Source: an uncultured bacterium
GTDB taxonomy: Bacteria > Armatimonadota > HRBIN16
Assembly: GCA_964535125.1 (NCBI GenBank)
Contig: CAZHSN010000002.1
Location: 1 to 59,444 of the forward strand
Length of the DNA: 59,444 nt
Reading direction: 5' to 3'
Below, piece by piece: positions 14,002 through 53,423 of this stretch. The notes under the pieces were generated by a model. It searched no databases and was not told the origin of the DNA. It saw only the letters and a program-made list of their open reading frames with translations. Position 1 is the stretch's first letter. Every line of letters starts with the position of its first letter. The translations under genes and the position numbers were made by a program.

Positions 14002-14024
14002 AGACAGGCCTCTTCCACTGCAGA

Positions 14025-14056
14025 CTTGCAGGAATCAGGAATCCGTGCAAGATAAT
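14025..14056 (+). promoter_or_regulatory. Candidate promoter and operator in the AraC / dehydrogenase-GRE divergent region
   Basis: TTGCAG (14026-14031), a 19-nt spacer, then GATAAT (14051-14056). The spacer holds a tandem direct repeat AGGAATC AGGAATC (14030-14043), flanked by the inverted hexamers CTTGCA and TGCAAG. Confidence 0.35.
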
Positions 14057-14174
14057 ACCAAGCGCCAGCAGGCAATACCATGGCATGCGCCAGCCAATCG
14101 CGATACGCTACCAGCAAGGATGCGGGATCATGAGGTGATGACCGGTATCTGAGACGGGCACAGGGAGGGGCAAC

Positions 14175-15287
14175 ATGCCGTTACAGTCGGCCATGGCCGC
14201 GGTGTTTACGGGGCCTCAACGACCTTTGGAGATCAAGACCTACCCGGTTGAGGCACCGGGTGAGGGTGACGCGCTGTTGTCACTGCGCAGCAGCGGCATA
14301 TGTGGCACGGATGTACATATTTGGGAAGGGCGGCTGCCGATTGGCTGCACCTGTATCCCAGGGCATGAGTTTATCGGGCGGGTCGAGGCGCTGGGTGCAG
14401 GCGTGACCCGGGACGGGTGCGGCGCGCCTCTGGCGGCAGGCGACGAAGCGGTGGCGTGTGTCGCCATCCCGTGCGGCCGGTGCGCTTCCTGCAGGCGGGG
14501 TGAGACCGCGAGCTGCCTGGCGTTCGGGGTGACCTACACCCGTAATCCGGAGACCGCGCCGCATCTGTTTGGCGGGTATGCGCAGGCGCTGTTCAGTCCG
14601 TCAGCCAATCTGGTGAAGTTGCCAAGCGGACTGCCGGCGCAGACAGCTGGCGCGTTCCCTTGCGCCGGCCCCACGGTGTTGCGTGCGCTGGCGTACGCAG
14701 GCGGTTTGCATCCGGGCGCGTTGGTGGTGGTGTTCGGCTCGGGCTCCATGGGCCTGTTTGCGGCAGCCCTCGCCGCCGGTCACGGTTGCCAGGTGATCTT
14801 GGTCGCGTCCCGCAGTCAGCCGGAGCGATGGGAACTGTGTCACCGTACCGGTGCGATTGATGTCCTGGATTACCGCCAGGGGGATCTGGAGACCCGCAAG
14901 GCGGCTGTTATGGAGTACGCCCGTCAGATCAACCATGCGGATGGGGCGGATCTGGTGATGGAGTGCAGCGGTAATCCGGCGGCCTTCCTTGAAGGGTTGG
15001 CGGTGACGCGTACGCGCGGCCGGTTTGTCGTCCCAGGGCAGTACTCCATCGGCGCTCCGGTTTCGGTTTCACCGGAGCAGATTACGTTTCGGGCGCTGCA
15101 GATCACCGGCAGCGGCCAGTATACGCTGGAAGACCTGCGCGCCTATCTGCTGCTGATGCGGGCATCAACACCGCTGCAAGAGCTGGCTGACGCGTGTGTC
15201 ACGCATACATACGCCGTGCAGGACGCCAATCAGGCGATGCGCGACGCCTGCGCCGGCGTCTGCGTGAAAGGAGTGTTCACCCGATGA
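14175..15287 (+). CDS. Zn-dependent medium-chain (MDR) alcohol/polyol dehydrogenase
   Basis: 370 aa. Catalytic Zn motifs GICGTDVHIWEG and GHEFIGRV. Structural Zn site CGRCASCRRGETASC. Rossmann motif VVFGSGSMG. GGGAGGGG RBS before the ATG. The stop overlaps the GRE start (ATGA). Confidence 0.85.
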   Translation: MPLQSAMAAVFTGPQRPLEIKTYPVEAPGEGDALLSLRSSGICGTDVHIWEGRLPIGCTCIPGHEFIGRVEALGAGVTRDGCGAPLAAGDEAVACVAIPCGRCASCRRGETASCLAFGVTYTRNPETAPHLFGGYAQALFSPSANLVKLPSGLPAQTAGAFPCAGPTVLRALAYAGGLHPGALVVVFGSGSMGLFAAALAAGHGCQVILVASRSQPERWELCHRTGAIDVLDYRQGDLETRKAAVMEYARQINHADGADLVMECSGNPAAFLEGLAVTRTRGRFVVPGQYSIGAPVSVSPEQITFRALQITGSGQYTLEDLRAYLLLMRASTPLQELADACVTHTYAVQDANQAMRDACAGVCVKGVFTR

Positions 15288-17377
15288 TCACGGCGCCCGC
15301 GCCAACAACACACAGTTGGGCCCCGCTGCTGACAGGGACACGCACATGGAACCGCACCCGGCCGGGCCGGTATGACTGGCGGGGGTATTATCGGGGACGC
15401 GCGTATCTGGAGCATGACGGGGAAGAAGAGCCGGTGGTGCGCGCCCACGGTTTTGCCTCGGTATTGCGGCATGTCCCGCTGCATGTATACCCCGATGAGA
15501 TGATCGGCGGCAGCCGCGCCGGGTTCGCACAAGACACTTTTCCCGACGGCGTGGATGACACGAACTGGCAGCGGTGCGTACAGGCCTGTCAGGAGCGCGG
15601 TCAGCGGCATTTTCAAGCCAATTGGGATCACTCTGTGGCCGACTTCCGGACGCTTGTGCCCGAAGGCGTGCCGGCCAGGCTGGCGCGCGTCAGGGAGAGA
15701 CTGCATGCTGCCGAAGATGATGACCAACGGAGTGCGCTGGAGGCGATGGCGATCTGCCTGGAGGGGCTGATCGCATATGCTGTCCGACTATCAGCCGTCG
15801 AACGGCAGGCAGGGAACAACGCCTGTGCGGATGCACTCGACGCGTTGACGCATCGTGCACCGGAGTCGTTCCATGAAGGGCTGCAGTTAGTCTGGCTGGT
15901 CCATATGGCGTTCGTGTCCGAAGATCGGTACCACATGGCCGTCGGCCGTATGGACCAGTACCTGTGGCCGCTTTATCGGCGCGACCGGGAGCACGGAATG
16001 TCCCGTGAACGGGCGCTGGAATTGGTCTGTCATCTGTGGGCGCATATCGAAGAGTTGGGTGAGGTCACCAATATCTGCGTGGGCGGGCTGACGCCTGAGG
16101 GAGATGACGGGTCTAACGAACTGTCCGGTGTGATGATCGAAGCCACCCGACTGGTGCAGTCGCCGCATACCAATCTGTCCGCGCGGTTTCACGACGGCAC
16201 GCCGGAGTGGTTCCATCGGGCCTGCTTCGAGTGCATTCGTACCGGGGTGGGGTTTCCGGCGATCTTTAACGACCATGTGTTGATCCCGGGGCTGATTCGG
16301 ATTGGTATTCCGGCCGAGGCGGCGCGCGATACCTGCATGGTGGGCTGCATTGAGACGATGATTTCCGGTCGGCAACGCGCTTGGTCCGACTGCTTCTTCA
16401 ACGCGCCCGCGGTGTTGGAAGAGACCTTCCACCGTCTCCGGGGGTGTGCTCCCGACTGGCCGCGGATCCAGAATACCTTCGTGGAACTGCTGCAGGAACG
16501 GCTGAACACCTTTTTGGACAGCATGGATGAGATCGCCACGTCGCGTCCCAGCGAGCGGTATCCGGATCCGTTCCTCTCTGCGTTAACGCGCGACTGCATC
16601 GGGCGCGGGCGTGACATCAACGCGGGAGGGGCCGAGTTCGAGCGGTTTTTCGGCGTGGCCATGCTGGGCATCGGCACCATGAGTGACTCGCTGGCGGCCG
16701 TGAAGAAGCTGGTGATTGAGGAACAGCGGCTGGAGTATGACACGCTGCTGGACGCGTTGGCTGCCGACTTCAAGGGGTACGAGAGCCTTCGGCAGATGCT
16801 CATCCACCACGCACCGAAGTACGGCAACGGTGACGCTTTCGTGGACAGTATCGCGGTTTGGCTGGTGGATGTGATGGGTGAGGCGGTGCTGCAACGGCCG
16901 GTGAAGGGCGGCGGCCGTTATGTAGGCGCCATTGCCTCCAACGTGACCAATATCCCGGCAGGTCGCGGAGTCGGGGCGTTACCGGATGGCCGGCATGCCG
17001 GTGAACCGCTGTCGGATGCGGGCAGCCCGGCACATGGACGGGACATCAACGGGCCAACCGCCGTGATCGAATCCGTCTCAAAGCCCGACTACAGTCAGAT
17101 GCTGACCGGCAGCGTGATCAACATGCGATTTGACCCGGCTTTGTTTGCGGAGGAAGAGGGTGCGCGCCGGTTTAGCGCGCTCACGCACGCGTTTGTACGC
17201 GGCCGCGTGCCGGAACTTCAATTCAACGTGACGTCCACGGCTACGCTGGAAGAGGCGCGGCGCGATCCGGATCGGTTCCAAGACCTGGTGGTGCGTGTCA
17301 GCGGCTTCTCGGCGTATTACACCCGGCTGACGCCGGAGATACAGCAAGACATCATCAACCGGAGGGCGCACGCTTGA
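15284..17377 (+). CDS. Glycyl radical enzyme (PFL2/1,2-eliminase-like), unusually compact at 697 aa
   Basis: C-terminal glycyl radical motif VVRVSGFSAYYTRL (Gly674, nt 17303-17305). Cys loop MVGCIETMISG (Cys355 at nt 16346-16348, Glu357). The Cys-to-Gly spacing of 319 aa resembles PFL. The in-frame upstream extension is at most 30 codons and lies inside the dehydrogenase gene. Confidence 0.85.
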   Translation: MITAPAPTTHSWAPLLTGTRTWNRTRPGRYDWRGYYRGRAYLEHDGEEEPVVRAHGFASVLRHVPLHVYPDEMIGGSRAGFAQDTFPDGVDDTNWQRCVQACQERGQRHFQANWDHSVADFRTLVPEGVPARLARVRERLHAAEDDDQRSALEAMAICLEGLIAYAVRLSAVERQAGNNACADALDALTHRAPESFHEGLQLVWLVHMAFVSEDRYHMAVGRMDQYLWPLYRRDREHGMSRERALELVCHLWAHIEELGEVTNICVGGLTPEGDDGSNELSGVMIEATRLVQSPHTNLSARFHDGTPEWFHRACFECIRTGVGFPAIFNDHVLIPGLIRIGIPAEAARDTCMVGCIETMISGRQRAWSDCFFNAPAVLEETFHRLRGCAPDWPRIQNTFVELLQERLNTFLDSMDEIATSRPSERYPDPFLSALTRDCIGRGRDINAGGAEFERFFGVAMLGIGTMSDSLAAVKKLVIEEQRLEYDTLLDALAADFKGYESLRQMLIHHAPKYGNGDAFVDSIAVWLVDVMGEAVLQRPVKGGGRYVGAIASNVTNIPAGRGVGALPDGRHAGEPLSDAGSPAHGRDINGPTAVIESVSKPDYSQMLTGSVINMRFDPALFAEEEGARRFSALTHAFVRGRVPELQFNVTSTATLEEARRDPDRFQDLVVRVSGFSAYYTRLTPEIQQDIINRRAHA

Positions 17378-18264
17378 CCGACTCGCCCGAGCTGCTGGTG
17401 ACTCATCTGCAGCGGTTCAGCATCCATGATGGTCCCGGGGTGCGCACCACGGTGTTTTGCAAGGGGTGTCCGTTTCGGTGCCCGTGGTGCCATAATCCCG
17501 AGACGCATCGCCCGGAGCCGGAACTGCAGGGAGATCAATCGCTGTGCGTGCAGTGCGGAGCGTGCGTGGACGCGTGTCCATCGCGGGCGATGAGCGCTCC
17601 CTGCGCGGTCGATCGGGCTGCCTGTCAACGGTGTTTCGCCTGTGTGGGTGTCTGTCCATCGACGGCATTGACCCGCGTGGGTACCTGGATGCGGCCTGAT
17701 GCGGTCGTGTACGAATGCCTGCGTGACATCGACTGGTACCGCGACTCGCAGGGCGGGGTGACTCTCTCCGGAGGCGAGCCGGCCGTGCAGCCAGCCGCCG
17801 TACAGGCGGTACTGGAGGGGCTGAACGCCGCGGGAGTGCACTGCGCAGTGGAGACCGCCGGAGTACACACAGCGGTCATCGAAAACTGGTGCGCGCTGGT
17901 GCAGCTATGGCTGGTGGATCTGAAAGCGCCGCTGGAACGGTATCCGGAACTGATAGGCGCGGATGGAGACGCCCTGCTGCGGACGCTGGACGTGCTGACG
18001 TTGCATCACGGTACCGTGCGGCTGCGCGTCCCGTTGACGCCAGGTGTCAACACGGAGAGACTGGCCGATACAGTGCGGTTCCTGATGGGCAGGTACCCGG
18101 ATATCGAGGGCATTGATCTGTTGCCATATCACCGAGCCGGAAACGTCAAGTGGGTTCTGCTGGGACGCACACCGCCGTTAAGCGATACAGAGCCGCCTTC
18201 CCGCGAGTGGGTGACTGAATGGATGCGGCCGCTTGACGGACTGCCGGTTAATCTGGAATGGTGA
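17374..18264 (+). CDS. Glycyl-radical enzyme activating protein (radical SAM, with two auxiliary ferredoxin-type cluster motifs)
   Basis: FSIHDGPGVRTTVFCKGCPFRCPWCHNPE (CX3CX2C), then CVQCGACVDACP and CQRCFACVGVCP, and SGGEP. The TTG start at 17374 overlaps the GRE stop and has a GGAGGG RBS 7 nt upstream. Confidence 0.85.
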   Translation: MTDSPELLVTHLQRFSIHDGPGVRTTVFCKGCPFRCPWCHNPETHRPEPELQGDQSLCVQCGACVDACPSRAMSAPCAVDRAACQRCFACVGVCPSTALTRVGTWMRPDAVVYECLRDIDWYRDSQGGVTLSGGEPAVQPAAVQAVLEGLNAAGVHCAVETAGVHTAVIENWCALVQLWLVDLKAPLERYPELIGADGDALLRTLDVLTLHHGTVRLRVPLTPGVNTERLADTVRFLMGRYPDIEGIDLLPYHRAGNVKWVLLGRTPPLSDTEPPSREWVTEWMRPLDGLPVNLEW

Positions 18265-18297: not shown

Positions 18298-21200
18298 ATG
18301 GATTTCTGTGATTTTCGCGTCTGGGTCTTGGCAGGCCTCGTGCTGCTGACCGCGGCATGCCGGGCCGCCGATGTACGGCTGGATGACCGGCCGGACTTGG
18401 TGGTGCATCACACGCAGGCCTGGGGTGTGCTGGGACTGGGTACGGCTGCGCACATGGCCGGTGTGGAGCCGATGAAGCTTCATATCGGTGAGCGGAGGTT
18501 CACCCGGGGGTTCGGTTCGCATGCCCCCGGAGTGATCGTCGTGGACCTTGGCGGCGACTATGATCGGTTTTCCGCGCTCGTGGGCGTACAGAAGCAGAAC
18601 GGTCCCGCCGGGTCGGTGGTCTTCCGTGTCGTCGGTGACGGCAAGGTGCTGTTTGACAGCGGTGTGGTCTACCAGCATACGCCACCCAAACAGGTCTCTG
18701 TATCCGTGCGCGGCGTCCAGTCGTTGGAACTGCGCGCCGATGACGCAGGCGACGGCATTACATGCGACGTGGCGAACTGGTGTGATCCCGTATTAACGCC
18801 GTTACCCGAGGCGATCCGCAAGCGCGATCTGGTCTATCTGGATCTCGCGCCGTTCGCCCGCGTGATGCACTGGGACTGGCGGAAGACAGCAGGAGCACCG
18901 AATCACCGGCTTCAGGAGTTCGACGCAGACGAGTTATTTCCGGGGACGCAGTTGGCGCGGAATGCGAGTGGCGGCTACACCGTTCCGACGGTGGACGGTA
19001 AGGCCTGCGTGGGATTGGAGTGGCTGGAGCGGCGCCAGGTCCGCACGCTGTCACTCACGTTGCCGGCAGGCCAGCCGCTGCCTCCGGTTGACGGGATGCG
19101 CGTGGAGGCGTGGATTAAACCAACGCCTCAGTCGGGAATTGAAGGCACCCGGTGGCAGGGCCGGTGGGCGCCATTCGAAGGGGATATCCGGTTGTCCGGG
19201 CGCACCTACGTGTTCACTCCGTTTCCCGCTCGCGCGTTCGGGTCACAGATGGCCCGGTTAAAGGTCCGCTGGATCTGGCCACACGACGCCGCGGTCGCCC
19301 ATATACGCGCCCTGAGCGCTGAGGCGAGGCGCCCGGCGGCGGATGTGACGCTGCACGTGTTCCGAACAGGGAAGTCATTGAACACACCCATTCAGATGAC
19401 GGGCTATAACCTGGCGTTCCATCAGGGCGGCGGGCTGATACACGGCAGGTCCCTTGATGTGCAGCGCGAGACGACGTGCCGTGTCCGGTATACGCAGCCA
19501 ACCCAGTGGCGCCAAGACCGGTCGGTGCTGCGGTTCTCAGGGCCGAATGGCGGATTTGGTGTGGCGATTGATGACCTGCTGGAGCATGGCGCCATCGAGT
19601 CGGACACGTATGGGATTGCCGTCGCGCTCAGTCCGGGGTGGCCGCGCGTACAACAGGCGCGCGCCAATCGGGGACAACGTCAGACGGTGCTGGACCGTGT
19701 GCGTCAGATGCCTGAACAGACGCTGGCCCGTGCATTGAACCGCGTACATTGGCAGGGAATGAACACCGGTCCTACGTTACTGTCGCTGGCAGCCAACCAG
19801 CACAAAGTGGAGTTGGAGCGCGAAGGAGCGGTGCTGTTCGAGTGGACGCCGGACATCCTGCGTCTCACGGAATCTGGCCTGAACCGCCACTTCTCCTGGC
19901 GATTCCAGCCCGCGGTGGGTACAGGGTCGGCCCGGTTCGGCTCCCGGTCGCTGCATCGGGGCTGGTACCCGATTGTGGTGACACGCTGGCGCGAAGGCCA
20001 GGTGGTCTACACCCAGGCCAGCATGATGGCGCCTGCCTCTCCGGCCATTCCGGGGCGGCCCGCCTGGTACCGGCCGGACGCAGCGTGTGTCGTCCGTACG
20101 TCCATGGAAAACGAAGGAACCACGCCGGCACAGGCGCGTGTTGCCTGGCAGCTTCAACTTCCGGAAGGCGCTGTGCAGCCCCGCTTGGAGGGGGACACAG
20201 GCCTGTTCGATGCACCTCACGGTGTGCAGATACATCTGCGTTCGTACGCGGAGTCGATGGCTGGTCGCGTGGAGTCAAACCGCTGGGTGGCCGAAGGGAC
20301 ACTGGCCCCCGGCGAGCGTGCCGTGGTGTCTGCGATGATCAGCTCGCGTCCCGGTGTGGACAGCGGTCTGATGTCCGGCGAAACCGCGCTGGAGGGAACT
20401 CGCCAGTACTGGGACGATCTGATGCGGGAAAGCCTGCAAATCGATCTGCCCGACAAGCGTCTGGAGCGTATCATTTTAGCCAACCGGGTGCACTGCTGGA
20501 TGGCGGCGCGCAGCGAGGCCGAAGGTGAGCGTGTGGCGCCGTGGATCGGCTCCATCCACTACGGCCCATTGGAGAGTGAGAGCCACGCGGTGATCCGCGG
20601 CATGGCCGCTCAGGGACATGACGAGTTCGCGCGGCGCGGTCTGGACTATTTCATCCATCGGTATAATCCGCAGGGTTTCCTGACAACGGGATATACCTGG
20701 ATGGGTACGGGCTGGCACCTGTGGACACTGGGGGAAGCGATGCGCTGGCAGCAGCAGGAAGACTGGTTGCGCGCCCGCGCTGATGAGATGGCGCGTGTGT
20801 GCCGATGGACGCTGGCGCAGATGGAGAAGACGCGGCGAGAGGGCCCGGACGGCCGTCCGCTGCGGGAAAGCGGGTTAATGCCTCCGGGTGTGATGGCCGA
20901 TTGGGATGTATACGCGTATTACTTCTACCTGAACGGCTATTTTGCGGCCGGTCTGCGCGAGGCCGGACTCAGCCTGCAGCGGATCGGACATCCGGATGCT
21001 GAACGGGTCTTGGACGGGTATGCGCGTCTGCGTGAGGCGACACGGCAGGCCTACCTCAGCGTCCAATCCGAAGCGCCGCTGGTTCAGCTTGGTAACGGCA
21101 AGTGGATACCCTATTACCCTACCCAGGCATACGCGCCGGGGCCGGTGGGCGACATGTACCCCGGAGAGGACGCGGGGCGCAGTTGGTGCTATGACGTGGA

Positions 21201-21909
21201 GTTGGGCAGCCATCACCTGGTGCCGTTCGGCATCCTGGATGCTCACGGGCAATCGGCCAACTGGATGATCGACCATCTGGAAGACGTGCAGTTCCTGTCT
21301 GACGGATGGGGCGGGGCGTTTCCCGCAACGCTGAACCACGAGCACTGGTTTGACCTGGGAGGTTTTGGTAAAGTCCAGCCCTATTACCTGCGGTACAACG
21401 AGTTGCTGGCCCAACGCGATGATGTCAAACCATTTCTGCGTTCGTTCTTCAATAGCCTCTGTTCCCTGTTGAACCGGGAAGACCTGTCGATTTGGGAGCA
21501 CTTTATGGTCGGCGCGTATAACAAAACGCACGAAACCGGCGGGTTTCTGCATCAGGCGCGGACCATGTTGGTGATGGAGCGGAACGACGGCTTGCTGCTG
21601 GCCGGATTTACTCCTGCGGAGTGGCTGCGTGACGGCGCCGTCATCAGGGTCAACAACGCCCCCAGTGCGTATGGAACCGTAAGCTACACGGTGACGTCAC
21701 ACGTGAACAGGGGAGAGATCCGCGCCGAAGTTACCCGTCAGCCTCGCGGCACACCCGGTCATGTTACGCTGCGCTTGCGGCATCCCGAGGGGAAGCCCAT
21801 TCGCGAGCTGCAGATCAACGGACGCACCGTGATGCAGGAAGGCGTCCATGCCGGAGACATTCGGTTGCCTGCAGGAGACGCGTCGGTCACGGTGATCGCC
21901 CGCTACTGA
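18298..21909 (+). CDS. Large secreted protein (1203 aa) with an N-terminal NPCBM-like carbohydrate-binding domain and an unrecognised catalytic-size body
   Basis: Signal-like N-terminus MDFCDFRVWVLAGLVLLTAACRAAD. AGGAGG RBS. The body (for example GFLTTGYTWMGTGWHLWTLGEAMRW) is suggestive of an alpha/alpha toroid, but the family is not recognised. Confidence 0.7.
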   Translation: MDFCDFRVWVLAGLVLLTAACRAADVRLDDRPDLVVHHTQAWGVLGLGTAAHMAGVEPMKLHIGERRFTRGFGSHAPGVIVVDLGGDYDRFSALVGVQKQNGPAGSVVFRVVGDGKVLFDSGVVYQHTPPKQVSVSVRGVQSLELRADDAGDGITCDVANWCDPVLTPLPEAIRKRDLVYLDLAPFARVMHWDWRKTAGAPNHRLQEFDADELFPGTQLARNASGGYTVPTVDGKACVGLEWLERRQVRTLSLTLPAGQPLPPVDGMRVEAWIKPTPQSGIEGTRWQGRWAPFEGDIRLSGRTYVFTPFPARAFGSQMARLKVRWIWPHDAAVAHIRALSAEARRPAADVTLHVFRTGKSLNTPIQMTGYNLAFHQGGGLIHGRSLDVQRETTCRVRYTQPTQWRQDRSVLRFSGPNGGFGVAIDDLLEHGAIESDTYGIAVALSPGWPRVQQARANRGQRQTVLDRVRQMPEQTLARALNRVHWQGMNTGPTLLSLAANQHKVELEREGAVLFEWTPDILRLTESGLNRHFSWRFQPAVGTGSARFGSRSLHRGWYPIVVTRWREGQVVYTQASMMAPASPAIPGRPAWYRPDAACVVRTSMENEGTTPAQARVAWQLQLPEGAVQPRLEGDTGLFDAPHGVQIHLRSYAESMAGRVESNRWVAEGTLAPGERAVVSAMISSRPGVDSGLMSGETALEGTRQYWDDLMRESLQIDLPDKRLERIILANRVHCWMAARSEAEGERVAPWIGSIHYGPLESESHAVIRGMAAQGHDEFARRGLDYFIHRYNPQGFLTTGYTWMGTGWHLWTLGEAMRWQQQEDWLRARADEMARVCRWTLAQMEKTRREGPDGRPLRESGLMPPGVMADWDVYAYYFYLNGYFAAGLREAGLSLQRIGHPDAERVLDGYARLREATRQAYLSVQSEAPLVQLGNGKWIPYYPTQAYAPGPVGDMYPGEDAGRSWCYDVELGSHHLVPFGILDAHGQSANWMIDHLEDVQFLSDGWGGAFPATLNHEHWFDLGGFGKVQPYYLRYNELLAQRDDVKPFLRSFFNSLCSLLNREDLSIWEHFMVGAYNKTHETGGFLHQARTMLVMERNDGLLLAGFTPAEWLRDGAVIRVNNAPSAYGTVSYTVTSHVNRGEIRAEVTRQPRGTPGHVTLRLRHPEGKPIRELQINGRTVMQEGVHAGDIRLPAGDASVTVIARY
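18385..18795 (+). other. NPCBM-like (GH98-associated carbohydrate-binding module) domain
   Basis: FTRGFGSHAPGVIVVDLGGDYDRFSALVGVQKQNGPAGSVVFRVVGDGKVLFDSGVV...VRGVQSLELRADDAGDGITCDVANWCDPVL. This matches the NPCBM pattern G-x-H-A-P, Y-x-x-F, GSVxFxVxxDG and DxGDGxxxDxAxWxD. Confidence 0.65.
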
Positions 21910-21978: not shown

Positions 21979-24900
21979 GTGTCTGCTATCGCCCGGGCTG
22001 TTCTGGCCGTTTTCGCGTTTGTACTGGTGTTCCCCGCGCATCCGCTGTATGCTCAACTGCCCTCGTTTGACTTCACCAAGGCATCGGTGGTGGCGGAGTG
22101 GAAGGCCGATCACGGCATCAGTTCCATCACCTCCACGGCGGAGGGTATGCGGATTGTGATCTCCGGAGAAGATCCGTATCTGCATGGCCCGGTACGTAAC
22201 TACCCGGCTGACAGCCCGCTGATCGCCACCATGCGCATGAAGTGTGATCAGCCGGGGTTCACAGAGATATTCTGGTACAAGCAGGGGTCGCATCCGGTTG
22301 CCGGTGATGAATCGGGGTCGTACGTGACTCAAGCAGGTGTCTGGGAGGATGTGCGGATCGTACTGCCGGCGCTGGGGTCGAACACCATCCTGCGCATTGA
22401 CCCGCCGGGATCCGGCGGTGTGTGCGTGATCCAATCCCTGACGTTTCAGGCGATGAACCTGCAGCCGCCCGCAGCCTGGCTGCCGCCCACCAAAGCGTAC
22501 GCAGGCGACGGGGCGCTGGTGTTGGTCAACGGCCAGACACGGCTGGAACACAGCGCCACAGTGTTTGGCCGGTATGATGTGATCCGCAACGGCGTGCGCA
22601 TCGGGTACGGTCATGATCAACCGATGCTGGGATATGTACGCGACTCGGGAGCGTCGGACTGGATCGACATCAAAGCGCATGCTGCGGTGACGGTCTCCGG
22701 AGGCAGTACGATCCGTGAGCGCGCCACCTTGGTGGACGCAGACGGACGCACCTGGACACTCGACACGGTTATCCAACCGGGACCGTTGCCAGACACGTTC
22801 CAGATCGATAGCCGCGTAGCGGTCAGTCGGGATGTGTCGTTGATCTATCTGCCGTTGGTTACGCTGTTCGGCGGAGCGGAGGCGTTTGGCGCGGCGCGAA
22901 ATCAAGGGTTGTTCGCCGGGTTGGAGTACATGGATGCGCCGGACACCAGCAGTTCCGCAGCGGACATCACCACAGCAGAGAAGAACCGCCAACTTCCAGA
23001 CACGTTGAAGATCACCTTCCCGTTGATGTCTGTACAGGGGCTGGGACGCTATGTCGGTCTGATCTGGGACATGAGCAACGCGACTTGTGCGTTGTTCGAC
23101 TCACCGGACCGGTTCTTCCAGTCGGGCAGTCATGTGATGGGGGTTGTGATGCCCGGTTCGGACGGCATCATCCGCGATACCAGCAGTCTGACGCCCCGGG
23201 TGCCCTCCACGTTGACCGCCGAGAATCCGCACTCCACCCGCGCCTGGATCATCGCCGGCGATGGCGCAAGCGTTGTACCGTCCATTGAGCAGTATGTGGC
23301 GCTGCGCGGGTTACCGGCGCTTCCCAGCACGCTGAACCAGGCGGAGTATGTATCGGCAACCGCCAACTCATGGCTCTATTCCAAGATCAGAGAGGGCTCA
23401 AAATACCGGCACGCCTACTGGCCCGGCACATCATTCGATCCTTTAAACGTCGCAGATCCGGCGATCTACATGGAGTGGCTGGCCTCCATGACAGGTAACC
23501 CGACGCTCGCCGCCACGCTGCGCACGGCGGGCGCCGCCGCAAAGGCCAACGTAAACTGGTGGGACTGGAACTACGCCAATGTGTCTCACAACGCGTATCC
23601 CATCGGCATGCTGCTGTGGGGACAGACGGCCGCGATCGCCAACAACGCCGGACCGCGATGCGACAGCTATCTGGGAGCATTCGACGAGCAGGGACGGATT
23701 ATATACAAGCCCCAGCAAGGAGGGATCGATTACGGGGCGACGCACTTTGCACCGGATGCGAACGGGTTGACTGCCAGTTACATGAAACCCGCGCTGGAAC
23801 TGGCCAGTGTCAGCGGCGACCAGACGCGTATTGATGCCGCGCTGAACCGGCTTTACCAGTTCAGCCAGTATGACAACACCGTGCCGCGGGGCGCACAGAC
23901 TTGGGAAGTGCCGCTGCACACCCCGGATATCCTCGCCTCCAGGTGGAATGCTCAGTGTTACCTGATGGGTTACAAGATGACCAACGACCCCGCTCTGTTG
24001 CAGCGTGCGGTCTATTGGGCCTGGACAGGCATACCGTTTGTGTACTTGATCAATCCGGCAGCCCGGGTGATCGGTACCTATGCCACGATCCCGGTGTTTG
24101 GCGCTACCGGCTATAACCTGGTCAACTGGATGGGGCTTCCCGTGCAATGGTGCGGCATGGTATATGCCGATGCACTGTACCGTCTGGCAGACTTTGACAA
24201 CTCCGCGCCATGGAAGATGCTGGCCGACGGCATCACGGTTTCGGGCATTCAACAGAACGAACCGGACAACGGAAACGCCGATCTGCGTGGGTTGCTGCCG
24301 GACTCGTTTAACCTGCGCGCGCAGGTGCGCAACCCGGTGTTTATCAACCCCGGCACGATTCAGGAGTGCGCGACGGTGCTGTATACCGGTAACTTCCTGT
24401 ATGACATGAAAACAGCGCATCCGTGCGGCTATATCATTCATGCGCCCGGCCGGGTTCAGATCACCGAGCAGACAGAGACGCGCGCGGCATTCACGGTAAC
24501 CAACTGGTACGGCGGCGCGTATTACCTGCTGATCAACCGGGTACCCAGCACGCCACGCGTCTGGGTTAACGGACAACAGGTTGCACTGACCGGCGCCAAT
24601 AGCTACACCGCAGCCCAGAAGCGGCTGGTGCTTCAGGTGATCGGCGACGCGCACGTCGTGGTGGATACCGGATATGCGTTAAGCGGCCAGATGGATCTGA
24701 AGGACTACGTGGGCAGCCCCGCGCAGTTTTCACTGCACCTGCGGTTGACCCGTGCAGGGGCAGCACCCGTGGAGAGACACATACCGCTCAATGGGGCGGG
24801 AGGTTTCGAGGCCAAAGGAATACCTGGCGGACAGTATACGGCCCGCTTCCGCGTAGAGCACTGGTTGGCTGTATCCGCGCCTGTTGATCTCACCGCGGAT

Positions 24901-25095
24901 CTGCAGGGGATCACTGCGTCGCTGGTAAACGGAGATGCGGACGGTGACAACCAGATCACCCTGTTTGACTATCTGGTTCTGGATGCGCAATTTGGACTCT
25001 CTGATCAAATGGCCGACTTGGACGGTGACGGCGCGGTTACGCTGTTCGACTATCTGATCATTGATCGATCGTTCGGAGCCGTCGGCAGCAACTGA
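21979..25095 (+). CDS. Large secreted hypothetical protein (1038 aa), paralog A, with a C-terminal dockerin-like module
   Basis: GTG start with AGGAGG 8 nt upstream. Signal peptide MSAIARAVLAVFAFVLVFPAHPLYA/Q. It shares long conserved blocks with the next gene: YDNTVPRGAQTWE, NWMGLPVQWCGMVYADALY, LLPDSF and RNPVFINPGTIQ. Confidence 0.75.
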   Translation: MSAIARAVLAVFAFVLVFPAHPLYAQLPSFDFTKASVVAEWKADHGISSITSTAEGMRIVISGEDPYLHGPVRNYPADSPLIATMRMKCDQPGFTEIFWYKQGSHPVAGDESGSYVTQAGVWEDVRIVLPALGSNTILRIDPPGSGGVCVIQSLTFQAMNLQPPAAWLPPTKAYAGDGALVLVNGQTRLEHSATVFGRYDVIRNGVRIGYGHDQPMLGYVRDSGASDWIDIKAHAAVTVSGGSTIRERATLVDADGRTWTLDTVIQPGPLPDTFQIDSRVAVSRDVSLIYLPLVTLFGGAEAFGAARNQGLFAGLEYMDAPDTSSSAADITTAEKNRQLPDTLKITFPLMSVQGLGRYVGLIWDMSNATCALFDSPDRFFQSGSHVMGVVMPGSDGIIRDTSSLTPRVPSTLTAENPHSTRAWIIAGDGASVVPSIEQYVALRGLPALPSTLNQAEYVSATANSWLYSKIREGSKYRHAYWPGTSFDPLNVADPAIYMEWLASMTGNPTLAATLRTAGAAAKANVNWWDWNYANVSHNAYPIGMLLWGQTAAIANNAGPRCDSYLGAFDEQGRIIYKPQQGGIDYGATHFAPDANGLTASYMKPALELASVSGDQTRIDAALNRLYQFSQYDNTVPRGAQTWEVPLHTPDILASRWNAQCYLMGYKMTNDPALLQRAVYWAWTGIPFVYLINPAARVIGTYATIPVFGATGYNLVNWMGLPVQWCGMVYADALYRLADFDNSAPWKMLADGITVSGIQQNEPDNGNADLRGLLPDSFNLRAQVRNPVFINPGTIQECATVLYTGNFLYDMKTAHPCGYIIHAPGRVQITEQTETRAAFTVTNWYGGAYYLLINRVPSTPRVWVNGQQVALTGANSYTAAQKRLVLQVIGDAHVVVDTGYALSGQMDLKDYVGSPAQFSLHLRLTRAGAAPVERHIPLNGAGGFEAKGIPGGQYTARFRVEHWLAVSAPVDLTADLQGITASLVNGDADGDNQITLFDYLVLDAQFGLSDQMADLDGDGAVTLFDYLIIDRSFGAVGSN
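24928..25092 (+). other. Dockerin-like duplicated Ca-binding (EF-hand-type) repeat
   Basis: NGDADGDNQITLFDYLVLDAQFG and DLDGDGAVTLFDYLIIDRSFG. These are two DxDxDG-x-(I/V)T-x-FDYL segments, as in type I dockerins. Confidence 0.7.
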
Positions 25096-25253: not shown

Positions 25254-27905
25254 ATGGCACACAGGGACAGACTGGCGGCGTGGTGCTGTTTGGCGTTGGC
25301 AGCGGCCAACGCGGCGATGGCTCAGACTGTACACTTCGACTTTTCATGGGCAGATACGGTTCGCCAATGGCGCGCAGCGAACCACGTGTCATCGGTGGCT
25401 TATACGCGCGACGGGATGCGCATCGCCATAGCAGGCAACGATCCCTATATCTTTGGCCCTGCCCGGACGTTTCCGGCCGCGCAGCGGTTTCTCGTGACCG
25501 CCCGGGTTTGGTCGGCCACTCCCGGTTTCTTCGAACTGTTCTGGTTCGCCGATGGTGAAAGCCCGGTACAGTCCCAAAGCGTCCGGCTGCCTGTTTCCCA
25601 AGGCGGCGTGTGGCAGACCGTTCAGGCGGCGCTGCCAGCACTTCCCTCCACCACCAGACTGCGCCTGGATCCGCCGGGAACGCGGAGACATGCGATCGTC
25701 CGGTCACTCACGGTGGAAGCGCTTCCCGTGCTTCCGGCTGCGCGATGGACAACACCCGACACAAGTGTGCTGACCGGCGGACTGGCGATACGCAGCGGCT
25801 CCTTAACGTTGCGTCACGGCGGGCGGTTCGGCCAGTTTGATGTACGGTATGGTGATCAGCGTGTGTTGATCGGCATCGGCGATCCGCAGATCGCTTGTGC
25901 CAATGACTCCGGTCCCAGATGGATCGGCAGCCGTCAGTCGGTGGTGTACGCCTCCGGATCCGCCATTGTCAGTCAGGTGACCTTGGCAGATGGAGCGGCT
26001 GCTTGGCGATTGCAGCAGCGTTTCACGCCTGGACGCAACGGAGAGATCCTGGTTGACGCATCTCTGACCGCACTGACTGCATCGAAACTTCACTACGCTC
26101 CGTTGATGCTGGTAAGCGCCTTCAGCGGCCCCAGGCCATACACGCGTCAGCAAGGGCTGTTTCCGGGCTTGGAATATCTGGATGAACCGGACACCAGCAG
26201 TTCGGAGGCCGATATCCGCGGTCCGGGCAGTTGGCGGTTGGCGCCTGACCAGATGAAGGTCACGATCCCCATGAGTGTGGTGCAGACCGCCAACCGGTGG
26301 ACGGCTATGAGTTGGCAACCCGGTGATGACGTATGTGCGGTGTTCGACTCGCCTGACCGCGTATTCCATTCCACGGGCCATCTGCAGGGAGTGGTTGCAC
26401 CGGGAGGAGACGCGATCAACCGGACCGGCCGCACTTTGTGGGCGGATGCGCCCTTATCGATGAAGCGTGGACAGACTGTCCGTACGCGGTGCGTGCTGAA
26501 GGCCGGCGTGGGGGCCAGCGTGGTCCCGGCGCTGCAGTGGTATATAGGCCGCAACGGCCTGCCCGCGTTGCCGCCTGCACCCAGCCGCTCTGCATATGCT
26601 CGATCCGCCGCAGCCGGTTGGCTGGATTCGGGACTGGCGGCATGGCCTAAGTGCAGGCATGCCTATTACCCCGACAGCCCCTTCCATCCCGCACCGGCCA
26701 TTGATCCAGCCGTGTATCTGCGCTGGCTGCAGACACAGCCGCTGCCGGCGGCCCGCAAACGGGCCATTGCGCGGGTCATTCAGCAGGTTGTTCCGTCGGT
26801 CGCCTCCGAACACTACCTCCAGCAGACGGTGTCGCACATCCGCCCGCCCGTGGCGCCTTTGCTGTTTGGCGACGTCGGTAAGGCGGTGGCTGCTGCGCGT
26901 GACGCCGGACATGGCCTGTTGAGCCGGTTCAATGAGCAGGGCCGCGTGATCTACCAGGCTGCGCCCGGCCAGGAAGACCAAGGGGTGACTCACTTTGCGG
27001 ATCATGCCAACGGGTTGACTGCCCCGCTGGTAGAGCAACTGCTCAAATACGCTATGTTCTCCGGTGACCGTGAACTGCGCACGCGCGGACTGGCGCTGCT
27101 GGACGCGCTGATGGAGTATGACAACACAGTGCCCCGCGGCGCTCAAACCTGGGAGTGCCCGCTTCATGTGCCTGACATCCTGGCGTCGGCGCATCTGGTG
27201 AAGGCGTTCGTGATGGGGTACCAGTTGACCGGTGAGACGCGGTATCTGGATCGGGCAAAGTACTGGGCATGGACTGGCGTCCCGTTTATCTATCTGCGTG
27301 ATCCGGCGAGCGGCCCCATCGGCCGTTATGGTTCCATCGCGGTGTTCGGCAGCACCATGTGGGATGCGGTCAACTGGATGGGTTTACCGGTTCAGTGGTG
27401 CGGCATGGTGTATGCCGATGCGCTGTACGATCTGGCCCCGCTGGACGGCTCCGGGCCATGGAAGCGGCTGGCTGATGGGATCACGATATCCGGTATGCAG
27501 CAGAACGAACCCTTGAGCGGCCGCAGGGAACTGGCTGGTCTGTTACCCGATTCGTTTGAGCCACGGTCGCAAACGCGTAATCCGGTGTTCATCAACCCGG
27601 GTACCATACAGTCATCCGCAGCCTGCCTGTACACGGGTGTCCCGTTGTTTTCGGCGGCTGTCAGTCGCCAACATGGCGCGATTGTGAACGCACCGGGGAC
27701 CGTCCGCACCGTAGAAGAGACCAGGGCGCATTGGATACTGAAACTCCAGCTGTGGCCCGCTGCGCCTGCACGCGTGTTGATTTCGGGGTTACACCGGATG
27801 CCGCGGTCAATCAACGGTCGACCTGTGCGAGCCGACGAAATCGTGACAGATGGGGTGCTGGCCATTCGCATGACCGGAACTGGGCGTCTGCGGTTGAGCT
27901 GGTAG
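25254..27905 (+). CDS. Large secreted hypothetical protein (883 aa), paralog B, without a dockerin
   Basis: AGGAGG RBS. Signal peptide MAHRDRLAAWCCLALAAANAAMA/Q. It is collinear with 21979..25095 from the N-terminal FDF-(T/S)-W...GMRI-I-G-DPY domain to the C-terminal catalytic-size region. Confidence 0.75.
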   Translation: MAHRDRLAAWCCLALAAANAAMAQTVHFDFSWADTVRQWRAANHVSSVAYTRDGMRIAIAGNDPYIFGPARTFPAAQRFLVTARVWSATPGFFELFWFADGESPVQSQSVRLPVSQGGVWQTVQAALPALPSTTRLRLDPPGTRRHAIVRSLTVEALPVLPAARWTTPDTSVLTGGLAIRSGSLTLRHGGRFGQFDVRYGDQRVLIGIGDPQIACANDSGPRWIGSRQSVVYASGSAIVSQVTLADGAAAWRLQQRFTPGRNGEILVDASLTALTASKLHYAPLMLVSAFSGPRPYTRQQGLFPGLEYLDEPDTSSSEADIRGPGSWRLAPDQMKVTIPMSVVQTANRWTAMSWQPGDDVCAVFDSPDRVFHSTGHLQGVVAPGGDAINRTGRTLWADAPLSMKRGQTVRTRCVLKAGVGASVVPALQWYIGRNGLPALPPAPSRSAYARSAAAGWLDSGLAAWPKCRHAYYPDSPFHPAPAIDPAVYLRWLQTQPLPAARKRAIARVIQQVVPSVASEHYLQQTVSHIRPPVAPLLFGDVGKAVAAARDAGHGLLSRFNEQGRVIYQAAPGQEDQGVTHFADHANGLTAPLVEQLLKYAMFSGDRELRTRGLALLDALMEYDNTVPRGAQTWECPLHVPDILASAHLVKAFVMGYQLTGETRYLDRAKYWAWTGVPFIYLRDPASGPIGRYGSIAVFGSTMWDAVNWMGLPVQWCGMVYADALYDLAPLDGSGPWKRLADGITISGMQQNEPLSGRRELAGLLPDSFEPRSQTRNPVFINPGTIQSSAACLYTGVPLFSAAVSRQHGAIVNAPGTVRTVEETRAHWILKLQLWPAAPARVLISGLHRMPRSINGRPVRADEIVTDGVLAIRMTGTGRLRLSW

Positions 27906-34641: not shown

Positions 34642-35184
34642 ATGGATTTCAACGCAGAACTGTTCCGGGTGGATGATGACTACCCGGTGCGCATATATGG
34701 CGACCCGGTGTTGCGGCAGAAGGCGGCGCCTGTGGTTCGCATGAGTGGCGAGGTGCGGCGGCTGATCGCCGACATGAAACGCATCATGCACGAGGCAAAC
34801 GGAGTGGGTTTGGCTGCGCCGCAAGTCGGCGTGTCAAAACGTGTGATTATCTATACCGATTTCACCGATGAGGAGCATCCGGTTCCTCGTGCGCTGATTG
34901 ACCCGGTTATCATCAAGACCGGAGAGCAGCAGGAGGAGATAGAAGAAGGGTGACTCTCGCTGCCTCGCTTGCGGGGCATGGTGACCCGACCGGCCGATAT
35001 CTGGGTCAAGGCGTTGAACGAGCAGGCCCGTCCGGTGCGTTTTCGCGCCACCGGTATGAACGCCCGGGTTTTACAACATGAAATGGACCATCTGGATGGG
35101 GTGCTGTTTATTGATCGGGCTGATCCGGATACGCTGCGTTTCCTGACTCCGGAAGAACTGGCCGATCCGGCATACGCTGACTGA
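34642..35184 (+). CDS. def: Peptide deformylase interrupted by one in-frame TGA (34951-34953) at the EGCLS metal-ligand Cys codon; either a selenocysteine candidate or a pseudogene/sequencing error
   Basis: The track ORFs 34642..34953 and 34969..35184 are in the same frame. The joined product carries all three PDF motifs: GVGLAAPQVG, EEG-[TGA]-LSLP and QHEMDHLDG. It overlaps the fmt start by 1 nt (TGATG). Confidence 0.85.
34960..34980 (+). other. GC-rich hairpin 9-11 nt downstream of the in-frame UGA of def (possible bacterial SECIS position)
   Basis: GCCUCG (34962-34967) pairs with CGGGGC (34972-34977) around a CUUG loop, with one G-U pair. The stem can be extended by U-A and by a C-G pair across a bulged U. 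SelB-binding features cannot be verified by eye. Confidence 0.35.
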
Positions 35185-44934: not shown

Positions 44935-45480
44935 TCAGTCGGCCGACGGCGGGGGCAGTGTACGCTGGAAGGTCTCCAGCATGTCACTCATGCTGAATGC
45001 CACGGGGAATGCGGCGGCATAGGTCTCCAGAGCGTAGCTCCAGACGGCCTCCAGCAGCGGATCCCACATGTAGTACAGGTATTGCAGGTCGTGCGGCTCC
45101 ACCAGCAGACATCCGCGTGACTCCAAGTCATCAGGGATGGCCTGGAAACAGGCCACTTCACCCACAAACACAGGCACCCACGAGACCGCGTGCTCATCGC
45201 TCTCCAGACGGTAGCTGCCCAGCGGGGTCACACGCTGCAAGGTAATGCCGGCCTCCTCACGGGCCTCCCGCAGGACGGCGCGACGCGGCGTCTCGCCTTC
45301 CCGTATGTGGCCTCCGGGAATAGACCATCCCCGGCCTTCAATATCGACCAGCAGTGCGCGGCCGGAGAAAAACGCAAACAGCAGGGCGGCCTTGGCGGAT
45401 TCGCGCCGGGTGCTGCCGGCTACGAAGGTGACCAGTTGGTTCTTCCAGCGTACGGTTGGAAATGGCATGGATGCTTTCAT
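44935..45480 (-). CDS. NUDIX hydrolase
   Basis: Nudix box GGHIREGETPRRAVLREAREEAGI (GX5EX7REUXEEXGU). Confidence 0.85.
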   Translation of the reverse strand: MKASMPFPTVRWKNQLVTFVAGSTRRESAKAALLFAFFSGRALLVDIEGRGWSIPGGHIREGETPRRAVLREAREEAGITLQRVTPLGSYRLESDEHAVSWVPVFVGEVACFQAIPDDLESRGCLLVEPHDLQYLYYMWDPLLEAVWSYALETYAAAFPVAFSMSDMLETFQRTLPPPSAD

Positions 45481-45556
45481 CGAAGCCCATTATGGCTTGC
45501 CTGTCATCTGATGTCAATGGTTGACGCCTGGCTGCGCGCAGAGAGCAGCCCGTTGC

Positions 45557-45565
45557 TGGTAAAAT
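45557..45565 (+). promoter_or_regulatory. Candidate extended -10 promoter for the ANTAR regulator operon
   Basis: TGGTAAAAT (TGn + TAAAAT) lies about 65 nt upstream of ATG 45631. No clear -35 element. Confidence 0.3.
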
Positions 45566-45630
45566 CAATAAGACAGACCTCTTTGGCACTGACATTGAGG
45601 ACATGCAACAGCCTAAGGGAGGGCGCCCAG

Positions 45631-53306: not shown

Positions 53307-53423
53307 TACGGTGCAAAAGTGCAACTTGGTGTTTCTGATGGACAAACACCGGCACTGCAAATGGGCTGATACTGAGGTTGGCGTTGGCTGGCAACGCGAT
53401 CATGAGAGGCAAGGGGACGAGAT

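Follow-up and report, generated by a model that had tools for sequence, protein, structure and literature searches.

We analyzed a 59,444-nucleotide stretch of DNA from an uncultured bacterium of the HRBIN16 lineage of Armatimonadota (GenBank assembly GCA_964535125.1, contig CAZHSN010000002.1, positions 1 to 59,444), referred to below as the window. It carries a three-gene module encoding a zinc-dependent dehydrogenase (DH), an unusually short glycyl radical enzyme (GRE) and a radical-SAM activating enzyme (activase), preceded by a divergently transcribed gene for an AraC-type regulator (Table 1). An initial annotation made from the sequence had assigned these identities, and domain profile searches agree with all three enzyme assignments and with the regulator.

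Table 1. Features of the GRE locus, with coordinates of the window
Feature	Position	Strand	Basis
AraC-family transcriptional regulator, 294 aa	13117-14001	-	PF12833 HTH_18, E=4.7e-16, residues 202-278
Divergent control region with imperfect direct repeat, candidate AraC operator	14002-14174	.	Function inferred only
Zn-dependent medium-chain alcohol dehydrogenase/carbonyl reductase (DH), 370 aa	14175-15287	+	ADH_N + ADH_zinc_N
Compact glycyl radical enzyme (GRE), 697 aa, C-x-E eliminase type	15284-17377	+	PFL-like + Gly_radical
GRE-activating radical-SAM enzyme, 296 aa, TTG start	17374-18264	+	TIGR02494
NPCBM-domain protein, 1203 aa, module membership uncertain	18298-21909	+	NPCBM domain, E=1.5e-32

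The translational coupling proposed for the three genes can be read directly at both junctions (15284-15287 and 17374-17377): the ATG of the GRE gene overlaps the TGA stop codon of the DH gene (ccgATGAtc), and the TTG start of the activase gene overlaps the stop codon of the GRE gene (cgcTTGAcc), with GGAG-type ribosome-binding sites 8-13 nt 5' of both overlapping starts. The open reading frame (ORF) of the GRE spans 15194-17377. Translation from the ATG at 15284 yields 697 aa, and the ceiling of 727 aa given in the initial annotation corresponds to the upstream GTG at 15194, where the in-frame ORF opens. The shorter form is backed by homologues, which align from residue 1 and have the same 4-nt overlap with the DH gene. 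Genes for bacterial microcompartment (BMC) shell proteins, aldehyde dehydrogenase and phosphotransacylase, previously reported as missing, were indeed found neither among the window ORFs scanned nor among the annotated homologous loci.

Profile searches also settle the domain borders of the GRE, which matches PF02901 (PFL-like, E=1.3e-99) over residues 116-558, equivalent to profile positions 159-645, and PF01228 (Gly_radical, E=2e-21). The expected hallmarks of radical chemistry are present: the Gly loop RVSGFSAYY, with Gly674, and the Cys loop GCIET, with Cys355 and Glu357. Both motifs occur unchanged in every one of 37 aligned homologues and are conserved in 117, and Cys355, Glu357, Gly674, His116, Asp369 and about 100 further positions are invariant in the 37 diverse members. 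The AlphaFold2 model, computed with this alignment, shows a complete and confident barrel (pLDDT 92.9 and pTM 0.92 across the whole chain). With its barrel, RVxG domain, catalytic Cys and cognate activase, the protein is a member of the PFL-like glycyl radical superfamily.

Compared with canonical-length enzymes, the alignment places the loss of about 80-90 residues mostly towards the N-terminus. About 63 missing alignment columns precede β1, 44 of them just upstream of Arg108; another 5 columns are missing near residue 144, and 10-15 between the helix at 241-258 and strand β3 (262-267). The earlier suggestion that the shortening is all N-terminal was therefore mostly, but not entirely, correct, and its placement in the N-terminal half of the barrel did not stand, since the losses affect mainly the helical region before β1 and the β2-β3 helix. 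The Cys-Gly spacing is 319 residues; in solved eliminases it is 330-337, and in PFL it is 315.

That this protein is a degenerate or truncated remnant lacking radical function is hardly credible. It is shorter than every characterized PFL-like GRE and scores below the cut-off of TIGR01774, but the length of about 695 aa, the start site and the catalytic loops are kept in over 100 homologues spread across many phyla, the modeled barrel is complete, a dedicated activase is translationally coupled to it, and the G+C content at third codon positions of its gene (GC3 = 0.73) is similar to that of the adjoining genes. A truncated or split gene is likewise ruled out by the conserved length and termini and by the complete fold.

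The compact GRE is widely distributed. More than 100 homologues, 690-700 aa long (median 695) and 50-57% identical, were retrieved from 5.8 billion proteins, together with one that is 81% identical. When 1.84 billion cluster representatives were scanned exhaustively with HMMER, about 16 clusters (50% identity level) with the compact architecture emerged, at 37-47% identity and 690-726 aa. Scanning GTDB species genomes, we located 62 loci in Lentisphaerota/Victivallales, Kiritimatiellia, Verrucomicrobiota, Planctomycetota/Phycisphaerae, Armatimonadota, TA06 and Anaerolineae/Chloroflexia; a further member occurs in Spirochaetota. The conserved compact GRE spans at least seven phylum- or class-level lineages. 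Among the GTDB loci there is a single cultured carrier, Oligosphaera ethanolica DSM 24202.

In order to place this family among known GREs, we compared the protein with equivalog models, solved structures and a phylogeny. Sequence matches in the PDB comprise PflD, glycerol dehydratase (GD), propanediol dehydratase (PD), CutC, YbiW, HypD, HpsG, IslA and HplG, with E-values from 1e-86 to 1e-69, and in Foldseek comparisons the model reaches TM-scores of 0.84-0.89 to solved eliminases and isomerases at 23-28% identity, with none standing out. Scores against NCBIfam equivalogs are all lower than their cut-offs by a factor of three or more: 334.9 against 1109 for PflD (NF007437), 320 against 1100 for HypD (NF043068), 305 against 1050 for CutC (TIGR04394), 304 against 1000 for HpsG and 292 against 1000 for HpfG. 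Even the broad PFL2/glycerol-dehydratase subfamily model TIGR01774 is missed, at 398.8 bits with a cut-off of 678.2. A neighbor-joining tree was built from 135 representatives together with GD, PD, two PflD, YbiW and CutC fragments reconstructed from HMMER alignments. The 22 compact-family sequences in it form an exclusive clade without any of these enzymes, and GD and PD group together, apart from the compact family. Membership in any characterized GRE group is ruled out by the NCBIfam cut-offs, PDB identities, pocket residues and tree. The position outside characterized clades proposed in the initial annotation is thus borne out, and, judged from these comparisons, the compact GRE family is a separate and widespread clade.

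A recent review of GREs (2026; PMC13450708) lists twelve characterized eliminases and isomerases, the compact family not among them, and points out that entire GRE clades are still without validation; the AARE paper makes no mention of the compact clade. The compact clade with its fixed DH partner is an uncharacterized branch of a known enzyme family. The protein was correctly described as shorter than characterized GREs, and compactness is unique to this family among them. The short length is not distinctive by itself, however: metagenomes contain further compact GRE clades, 700-730 aa long and unrelated to this one, and uncharacterized clades with short N-termini or short β2-β3 loops also exist, so compactness alone is not unique in metagenomic sequence space. 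As a separate observation, the sister of the compact family (P0262, P0266) has C-x-H in place of C-x-E and Glu at the position of Asp369, and departs from the eliminase hallmark.

Residue equivalences with solved enzymes were derived from profile alignments. His116 corresponds to GD His164, where CutC has Asp216 and IslA has Gln193. Cys355 and Glu357 correspond to GD Cys433 and Glu435, Cys355 aligning also with the catalytic Cys of PflD and CutC, and Asp369 corresponds to GD Asp447. Because these residues match those of GD, the acid-base and radical tetrad of a dehydratase is retained, and it is invariant across the 37 sequences and the roughly 16 clusters. The roles of the GD tetrad residues are described, and the C-x-E motif of GRE 1,2-eliminases is defined, in PMC13450708.

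The substrate-pocket comparison that had been recommended shows, at the level of alignment, that the remaining pocket residues of GD and PD are not conserved. After β2, where GD and PD have G-H-S (GD His281-Ser282), the compact family has R215-Y-(A/H)217-M218. Ala551 and Asn553 occupy the β8 positions of GD Tyr640 and Ser642, and where β3 starts, Val261 stands in place of GD Tyr339. Several polar or charged residues (Arg108, Arg215, Asn553, Asn556 and Gln364) are conserved throughout the compact family. Arg108, on β1, may occupy the site of CutC Tyr208, a mapping that depends on the alignment, as the nearby deletion falls at different places in the HMMER and MAFFT alignments. Together these positions give a signature, R108-x-F110 ... 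[D/S]115-H116 / R215 / C355-x-E357 / [R/K]363-Q364 / W367-[S/A]-D369 / A551-x-N553-x-x-N556, which all compact clusters keep and which no other clade in the 135-sequence alignment has.

The segment between β2 and β3 is of particular interest. Relative to the compact family, GD, PD, both PflD, YbiW and CutC have an insertion of 10-15 residues here, which in GD carries Phe333, at the position equivalent to HypD Ser334. According to the HypD paper, Ser334 lies in a short α-helix between β2 and β3, and its equivalents are PD Phe338 and CutC Phe389, all of them substrate-contacting; the 2026 review (PMC13450708) calls this 'cap helix' conserved across GREs. In the model of the compact enzyme only 3 residues separate the helix at 241-258 from the strand at 262-267, and the aromatic residue that follows the segment elsewhere (HypD Phe340, CutC Phe395, IslA Trp374) is replaced by Val261. 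Alignment and modeled secondary structure therefore indicate that the compact family lacks the cap-helix segment. An assignment as HypD was rejected on its score and on the deletion of the segment that holds Ser334.

These pocket features bear on whether the module is simply a counterpart of known small-diol systems, in which the GRE would dehydrate glycerol, or 1,2-propanediol formed when rhamnose or fucose is fermented, and DH would reduce propanal or 3-hydroxypropanal as an electron sink. The module contains the same self-contained set of three functions as dhaB1-dhaB2-dhaT of Clostridium butyricum, with a medium-chain dehydrogenase/reductase (MDR) in place of an iron-dependent alcohol dehydrogenase (Fe-ADH); it retains the His/Cys/Glu/Asp tetrad of GD and PD, and DH is of the aldehyde-reductase type of the ADH/cinnamyl alcohol dehydrogenase (ADH/CAD) group. 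Rhamnose-related neighbors (rhaM in the window, RhaT and the glycoside hydrolase family GH78 at other loci) would supply lactaldehyde and 1,2-propanediol, and a weak monoacylglycerol-lipase match of an esterase found at some loci could point to glycerol. We nevertheless consider this explanation unlikely. GD and PD share G-H-S, the β2-β3 Phe/Tyr, G-W-H-D and Tyr-Pro-x-Ser, of which the compact family keeps only the His and the Asp; it forms a separate clade below the PFL2/GD subfamily cut-off, and its two conserved Arg, two Asn and one Gln suggest a ligand larger or more polar than propanediol. PD systems are, moreover, normally BMC-associated, and the locus has no BMC genes. Placement of the GRE in the GD/PD group itself was rejected on the same pocket residues and on the tree.

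A second possibility is chemistry of the PflD/YbiW type, that is, isomerization or ether cleavage in which a hydrogen beside a ring or glycosidic oxygen would be abstracted before C-O scission, for instance of an unphosphorylated anhydro-sugar or glycoside, with DH reducing the keto product. PflD (8yjo, 8id0) is marginally the top match in both sequence and fold, PflD and YbiW likewise have the C-x-E motif, the His and the Asp, and loss of the β2-β3 helix could admit a bulkier sugar. One locus provides a further parallel: L066 (6796-15212) has the order AraC | DH - GRE - GRE - GRE - activase, with tandem GREs of 696, 711 and 689 aa that are 71-74% identical and differ at the presumed pocket positions 216-218 and 549-553. 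These differences suggest that the paralogues may be sub-specialized on related substrates, which recalls the epimer-specific YbiW/PflD pair. The explanation is improbable all the same, as the compact family lies outside the PflD/YbiW clade and far below the PflD equivalog cut-off, does not conserve the PflD-type pocket residues S-S-L, G-L-H-D and Tyr-Thr-Val-Ser, and has no consistently nearby phosphotransferase system (PTS), kinase or FsaA-type aldolase. An anhydrohexitol-phosphate isomerase proper was rejected on score and clade.

Cleavage of a C-S, C-N or C-P bond in an anionic 2-hydroxyalkyl compound (isethionate-, 2,3-dihydroxypropanesulfonate (DHPS)-, choline- or hydroxyethylphosphonate-like), with DH making the alcohol substrate out of the aldehyde as SarD does for IslA, is very improbable. 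The two conserved Arg residues would suit an anionic ligand, sulfatase and formylglycine-generating enzyme (FGE) genes occur in some neighborhoods, and the best NCBIfam match of DH is a model for a phosphonate-catabolism alcohol dehydrogenase, at a score far below its cut-off. On the other hand, the sulfonate triad of IslA/IseG/HpsG (Arg at His-4, Gln at His, Arg on β8) is replaced by Ala112, His116 and Ala549/Ala551, the position of CutC Asp216 is His, the equivalog scores are far below their cut-offs, and the flanking ORFs include no aminotransferase, sulfite reductase or phosphonate genes. Assignments as CutC choline trimethylamine-lyase (305 bits, and His116 where CutC has Asp216 on β1) and as IslA/IseG/HpsG/HpfG (292-304 bits, triad positions substituted) were accordingly rejected.

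The second enzyme of the module is a medium-chain zinc-dependent dehydrogenase/reductase, with the domains PF08240 (ADH_N) and PF00107 (ADH_zinc_N). Its catalytic zinc ligands Cys43, His64/Glu65 and Cys163 (in an L-C-A-G-type motif) and its structural-zinc cysteines 100, 103, 106 and 114 are invariant in 120 homologues. At the end of Rossmann β2 these homologues have I-G-S-x-S ... Arg218, with no Asp or other acidic residue. Among PDB entries, the enzyme matches best with 1vj0, listed as a zinc-containing alcohol dehydrogenase. The initial annotation had described the enzyme as an MDR resembling sorbitol or threonine dehydrogenase. The MDR assignment stands, but no named equivalog does, as the threonine, sorbitol, idonate and HpnZ-type models are all below cut-off; no NCBIfam model passes, the closest being TIGR03366 (phosphonate-catabolism-associated ADH) at 161 against 328. 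With ADH/CAD and NADP-dependent alcohol dehydrogenases as the basis of comparison, the Cys-His-Cys ligand set and the lack of an acidic residue at the β2 end fit an NADPH-dependent aldehyde/ketone reductase. DH is therefore probably an NADP(H)-linked reductase, which argues against a sugar 1-dehydrogenase.

This matters for a further alternative, an oxidative sugar route in which DH would be an NADP+ aldose 1-dehydrogenase, an α/β-hydrolase the lactonase, and the GRE an aldonate (2,3-diol) dehydratase yielding a 2-keto-3-deoxy acid. The α/β-hydrolase in question is an esterase that recurs as a cluster in six loci and also at L070; it is a generic member of its superfamily, resembling carbohydrate and polyhydroxybutyrate (PHB)-type esterases. 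At L073 the order is AraC | DH - esterase::GRE - activase, with the esterase at the N-terminus of a GRE in a fusion protein of 937 aa (protein P0244, 6095-8908), as would be expected if esterase and GRE catalyzed consecutive steps; this fusion is known from a single contig and may be an assembly or frameshift artefact, and at least seven other loci have this type of esterase as a separate gene. Arg108 and Arg215 could bind a carboxylate, a rhamnose mutarotase gene is nearby, and DH has weak Glu_dehyd_C matches. The route is decidedly improbable in view of the Cys-His-Cys zinc set of DH, which is of the alcohol/aldehyde reductase type; MDR sugar 1-dehydrogenases have a Cys-His-Glu/Asp set. The esterase, in addition, is unlike known sugar lactonases and occurs in only about 10 loci, no aldolase or kinase of the 2-keto-3-deoxygluconate (KDG) type is consistently adjacent, and aldonate dehydration is already easy for non-radical dehydratases.

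Conservation of the module was assessed in a survey of genome neighborhoods, as the initial annotation had recommended, counting adjacency in loci with both flanks available (39 non-Chloroflexota and 10 Chloroflexota). An MDR dehydrogenase lies within 400 bp of the GRE gene in 30 of the 39 non-Chloroflexota loci (two of the 39, L070 and L072, were fetched by DH seeding), and all three DH-seeded loci have a short GRE directly downstream. DH homologues diverge in step with the GRE, both at 50-57% identity, and the DH-GRE partnership is conserved. An activase gene adjoins the GRE gene in 11/39 non-Chloroflexota and 1/10 Chloroflexota loci, and a divergent AraC gene lies within 3 kb in 12/39, with none recorded in Chloroflexota; a divergent AraC gene is seen at L066, L067, L070 and L073. 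The flanking genes do not name the substrate. In Oligosphaera ethanolica and a related metagenome-assembled genome we observed a different layout (L052, 5627-7656; L053, 7612-9650): two conserved Cys-rich proteins without a Pfam match are encoded immediately 5' of the GRE, in the place taken by DH or AraC at other loci, and DH is located 3' of the GRE.

The activase scores 262 bits against TIGR02494 (cut-off 174) and contains the motifs CPFRCPWC (Cx3Cx2C), CVQCGACVDAC and CQRCFACVGVC, the latter two ferredoxin-like. Between the AraC and DH genes we found an imperfect direct repeat (14047-14069 and 14072-14094) with ATACCA cores. The repeat is conserved in L001, the relative with 81% identity, where conservation is higher at the center of the spacer than towards its edges. 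Searches of the spacer for a sigma-70 consensus, an Rfam element or a riboswitch were negative.

The retained tetrad, the altered pocket and the conserved reductase partner lead us to propose, with moderate confidence, that the locus encodes a self-contained, AraC-controlled module combining a polyol/diol dehydratase with a carbonyl reductase, acting on a glycan-derived metabolite. The activase would install a glycyl radical on Gly674. The radical would then move to Cys355, and a hydrophilic vicinal diol or polyol would lose a hydrogen from a carbinol carbon to this residue. Glu357 would deprotonate the hydroxyl on the radical-bearing carbon, the neighboring hydroxyl would depart with help from His116 and Asp369, and return of the hydrogen would give a deoxy aldehyde or ketone, in a 1,2-elimination like that of the B12-independent glycerol dehydratase. 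DH would handle the carbonyl/alcohol step, most likely by reducing the reactive carbonyl product; alternatively, it could act first and turn a sugar carbonyl into the diol. Glycan breakdown most likely supplies the GRE substrate as a small metabolite derived from a sugar, with deoxyhexose links as the commonest hint; this substrate would not be glycerol or 1,2-propanediol bound in the manner of GD or PD. Since the reductase adjoins the GRE, a microcompartment may be unneeded, and the adjacent reductase plausibly substitutes for the aldehyde-containing microcompartment of other GRE eliminases.

A more far-reaching version, which we put forward tentatively as a doubtful but real possibility, is that the compact family catalyzes an undescribed GRE reaction on a free, unphosphorylated carbohydrate-derived substrate, with an active site opened by the loss of the cap helix and an obligate DH that captures the carbonyl and replaces the microcompartment. 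An esterase might, for example, release a deoxy-hexose, hexitol or aldonate that the GRE would then dehydrate by radical chemistry or cleave at a C-O bond, with DH perhaps docking at the open barrel end to capture the product.

Several observations weigh against the dehydratase-reductase proposal. The pocket residues were assigned by aligning the sequence with those of solved enzymes, and dehydratase and isomerase chemistry are indistinguishable by sequence because PflD and YbiW also keep the His and the Asp. DH adjoins the GRE in none of the 10 Chloroflexota loci, so it is not universally needed nearby. When 196 ORFs flanking the GRE at about 60 loci were classified by Pfam domain, nothing proved to be shared beyond DH, activase, AraC and esterase. 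The link to sugars is weak because no further flanking gene is conserved and because genomes of the Planctomycetes-Verrucomicrobia-Chlamydiae (PVC) group are rich in glycosidases anyway. Finally, our literature searches yielded no characterization of any compact-clade member; together with the separate clade and the scores below every NCBIfam cut-off, this agrees with the initial description of a GRE subfamily without an assigned substrate.

Among known systems, the GD system of Clostridium butyricum (GRE DhaB1, activase DhaB2 and 1,3-propanediol dehydrogenase DhaT; PDB 1R8W/1R9D) is comparable in several respects. It has the same C-x-E motif, the conserved His and Asp, and a barrel that superimposes at a TM-score of 0.89. 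The dha operon is also compact, combining a GRE, an activase and an alcohol dehydrogenase without a microcompartment, like the module described here. DhaT is an Fe-ADH, whereas the partner here is an MDR zinc enzyme, likely NADP(H)-dependent, and the regulator here is AraC-type. The GREs share 25% identity at 697 versus 787 aa and differ in the β2 (with Arg215 nearby), β3 and β8 pocket positions and in the deleted Phe333-bearing helix discussed above. PD (Roseburia inulinivorans 5I2A/5I2G; 9RCO) shows the same eliminase hallmarks and fold and offers a possible link to rhamnose/fucose catabolism, but its pocket is GD-type (G-H-S, F/Y helix, G-W-H-D, Tyr-Pro-Val-Ser) and that of the compact family is not. 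PD is normally encoded in BMC loci of the glycyl radical enzyme-associated type (GRM), with aldehyde dehydrogenase and phosphotransacylase.

The 1,5-anhydrohexitol-6-phosphate isomerases PflD and YbiW (8YJO, 8ID0, 8ID7), the top matches, have a carbohydrate substrate and keep C-x-E, His and Asp, and their pairing as paralogues with epimer specificity may be compared with the three tandem GREs of L066. They differ from the compact enzyme in sequence (27% identity), pocket residues, clade and PTS/aldolase context, the last being absent here. Reductase partners are also part of sulfonate-degrading systems: HpfG, a DHPS dehydratase, is paired with the sulfopropionaldehyde reductase HpfD, and IslA with a sulfoacetaldehyde reductase. 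The logic is alike, in that an NAD(P)H carbonyl reductase takes the step immediately before or after that of the GRE eliminase, although in the compact module the equivalog scores are low (292-304 against 1000), the sulfonate triad is absent and the reductase belongs to a different family. The reactions of HpfG and IslA are described in PMC13450708.

GRE eliminases have repeatedly revealed unexpected anaerobic pathways, from choline conversion to trimethylamine to the turnover of hydroxyproline, sulfonates and anhydro-sugars. The compact clade is widespread in poorly cultured glycan-degrading anaerobes of the Lentisphaerota, Kiritimatiellia, Planctomycetota, Armatimonadota and Anaerolineae, and knowing what it acts on would probably bring to light a new step in the way carbohydrates or deoxy-sugars are turned over without oxygen in sediments, digesters and guts. 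The scaffold, about 90 residues shorter and without the β2-β3 helix, tests which parts of a GRE are essential, and, with Oligosphaera ethanolica DSM 24202 in culture, the physiology of one carrier is open to experiment. The module is thus a worthwhile target for enzymology and structure determination, though not itself a new principle.

Genes surrounding the module lean weakly towards sugar metabolism, possibly of a deoxyhexose. Neighbors within the window include rhaM (rhamnose mutarotase), an FGE-sulfatase gene, and genes for a DUF5696 protein, the NPCBM protein and two large paralogues. Elsewhere, individual loci have RhaT with GH3, GH78 with an ABC transporter, or GH38, GH9, GH42 and others. 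One locus combines a CUT2-type monosaccharide ABC transporter with GH2, GH30 and a second short GRE, and DeoC, M20 peptidase and URO-D genes are scattered among the rest. The NPCBM gene starts 33 nt past the activase stop codon, behind an AGGAGG ribosome-binding site, and no terminator-like site was found between the two. The gene may share a transcript with the GRE module, but in this lineage alone; the arrangement appears lineage-specific because it is shared only with the 81% relative L001. The protein itself has only carbohydrate-binding module (CBM) matches.

The two large paralogues (21979-25095 and 25254-27905, both +; 1038 and 883 aa, 43% identical) have no sequence match in Pfam or the PDB and belong to a family of hypothetical proteins of about 880 aa in Armatimonadota, Phycisphaerae and Verrucomicrobiota. 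The AlphaFold2 model (pLDDT 90) combines β-sandwiches with an (α/α)6-type barrel and has no close structural relative; only remote fold matches were obtained, to GH101, GH94, GH63, GH116, GH78 and polysaccharide lyase (PL) enzymes. Judged from this model, the paralogues probably represent an undescribed family of carbohydrate-active enzymes. As this barrel type is seen in glycoside hydrolases and lyases, these proteins would indicate only glycan degradation.

Towards the end of the window (52356-55042, +; 56349-59078, -) a second AraC gene is followed by a second MDR-like dehydrogenase gene, with a gene for a GH116-family glycosidase adjoining; this dehydrogenase is unrelated to that of the GRE module (26% identity over 149 aa). 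A peptide deformylase ORF of 103 aa (34642-34953, +), which covers profile positions 3-93 of 156 and may reflect a frameshift or a miscall, lies just upstream of a formyltransferase gene at 35184. Finally, the region 45190-48032 (+) encodes an ANTAR-domain response regulator paired with a histidine kinase that carries tandem GAF domains and an HWE/HisKA_2 domain.

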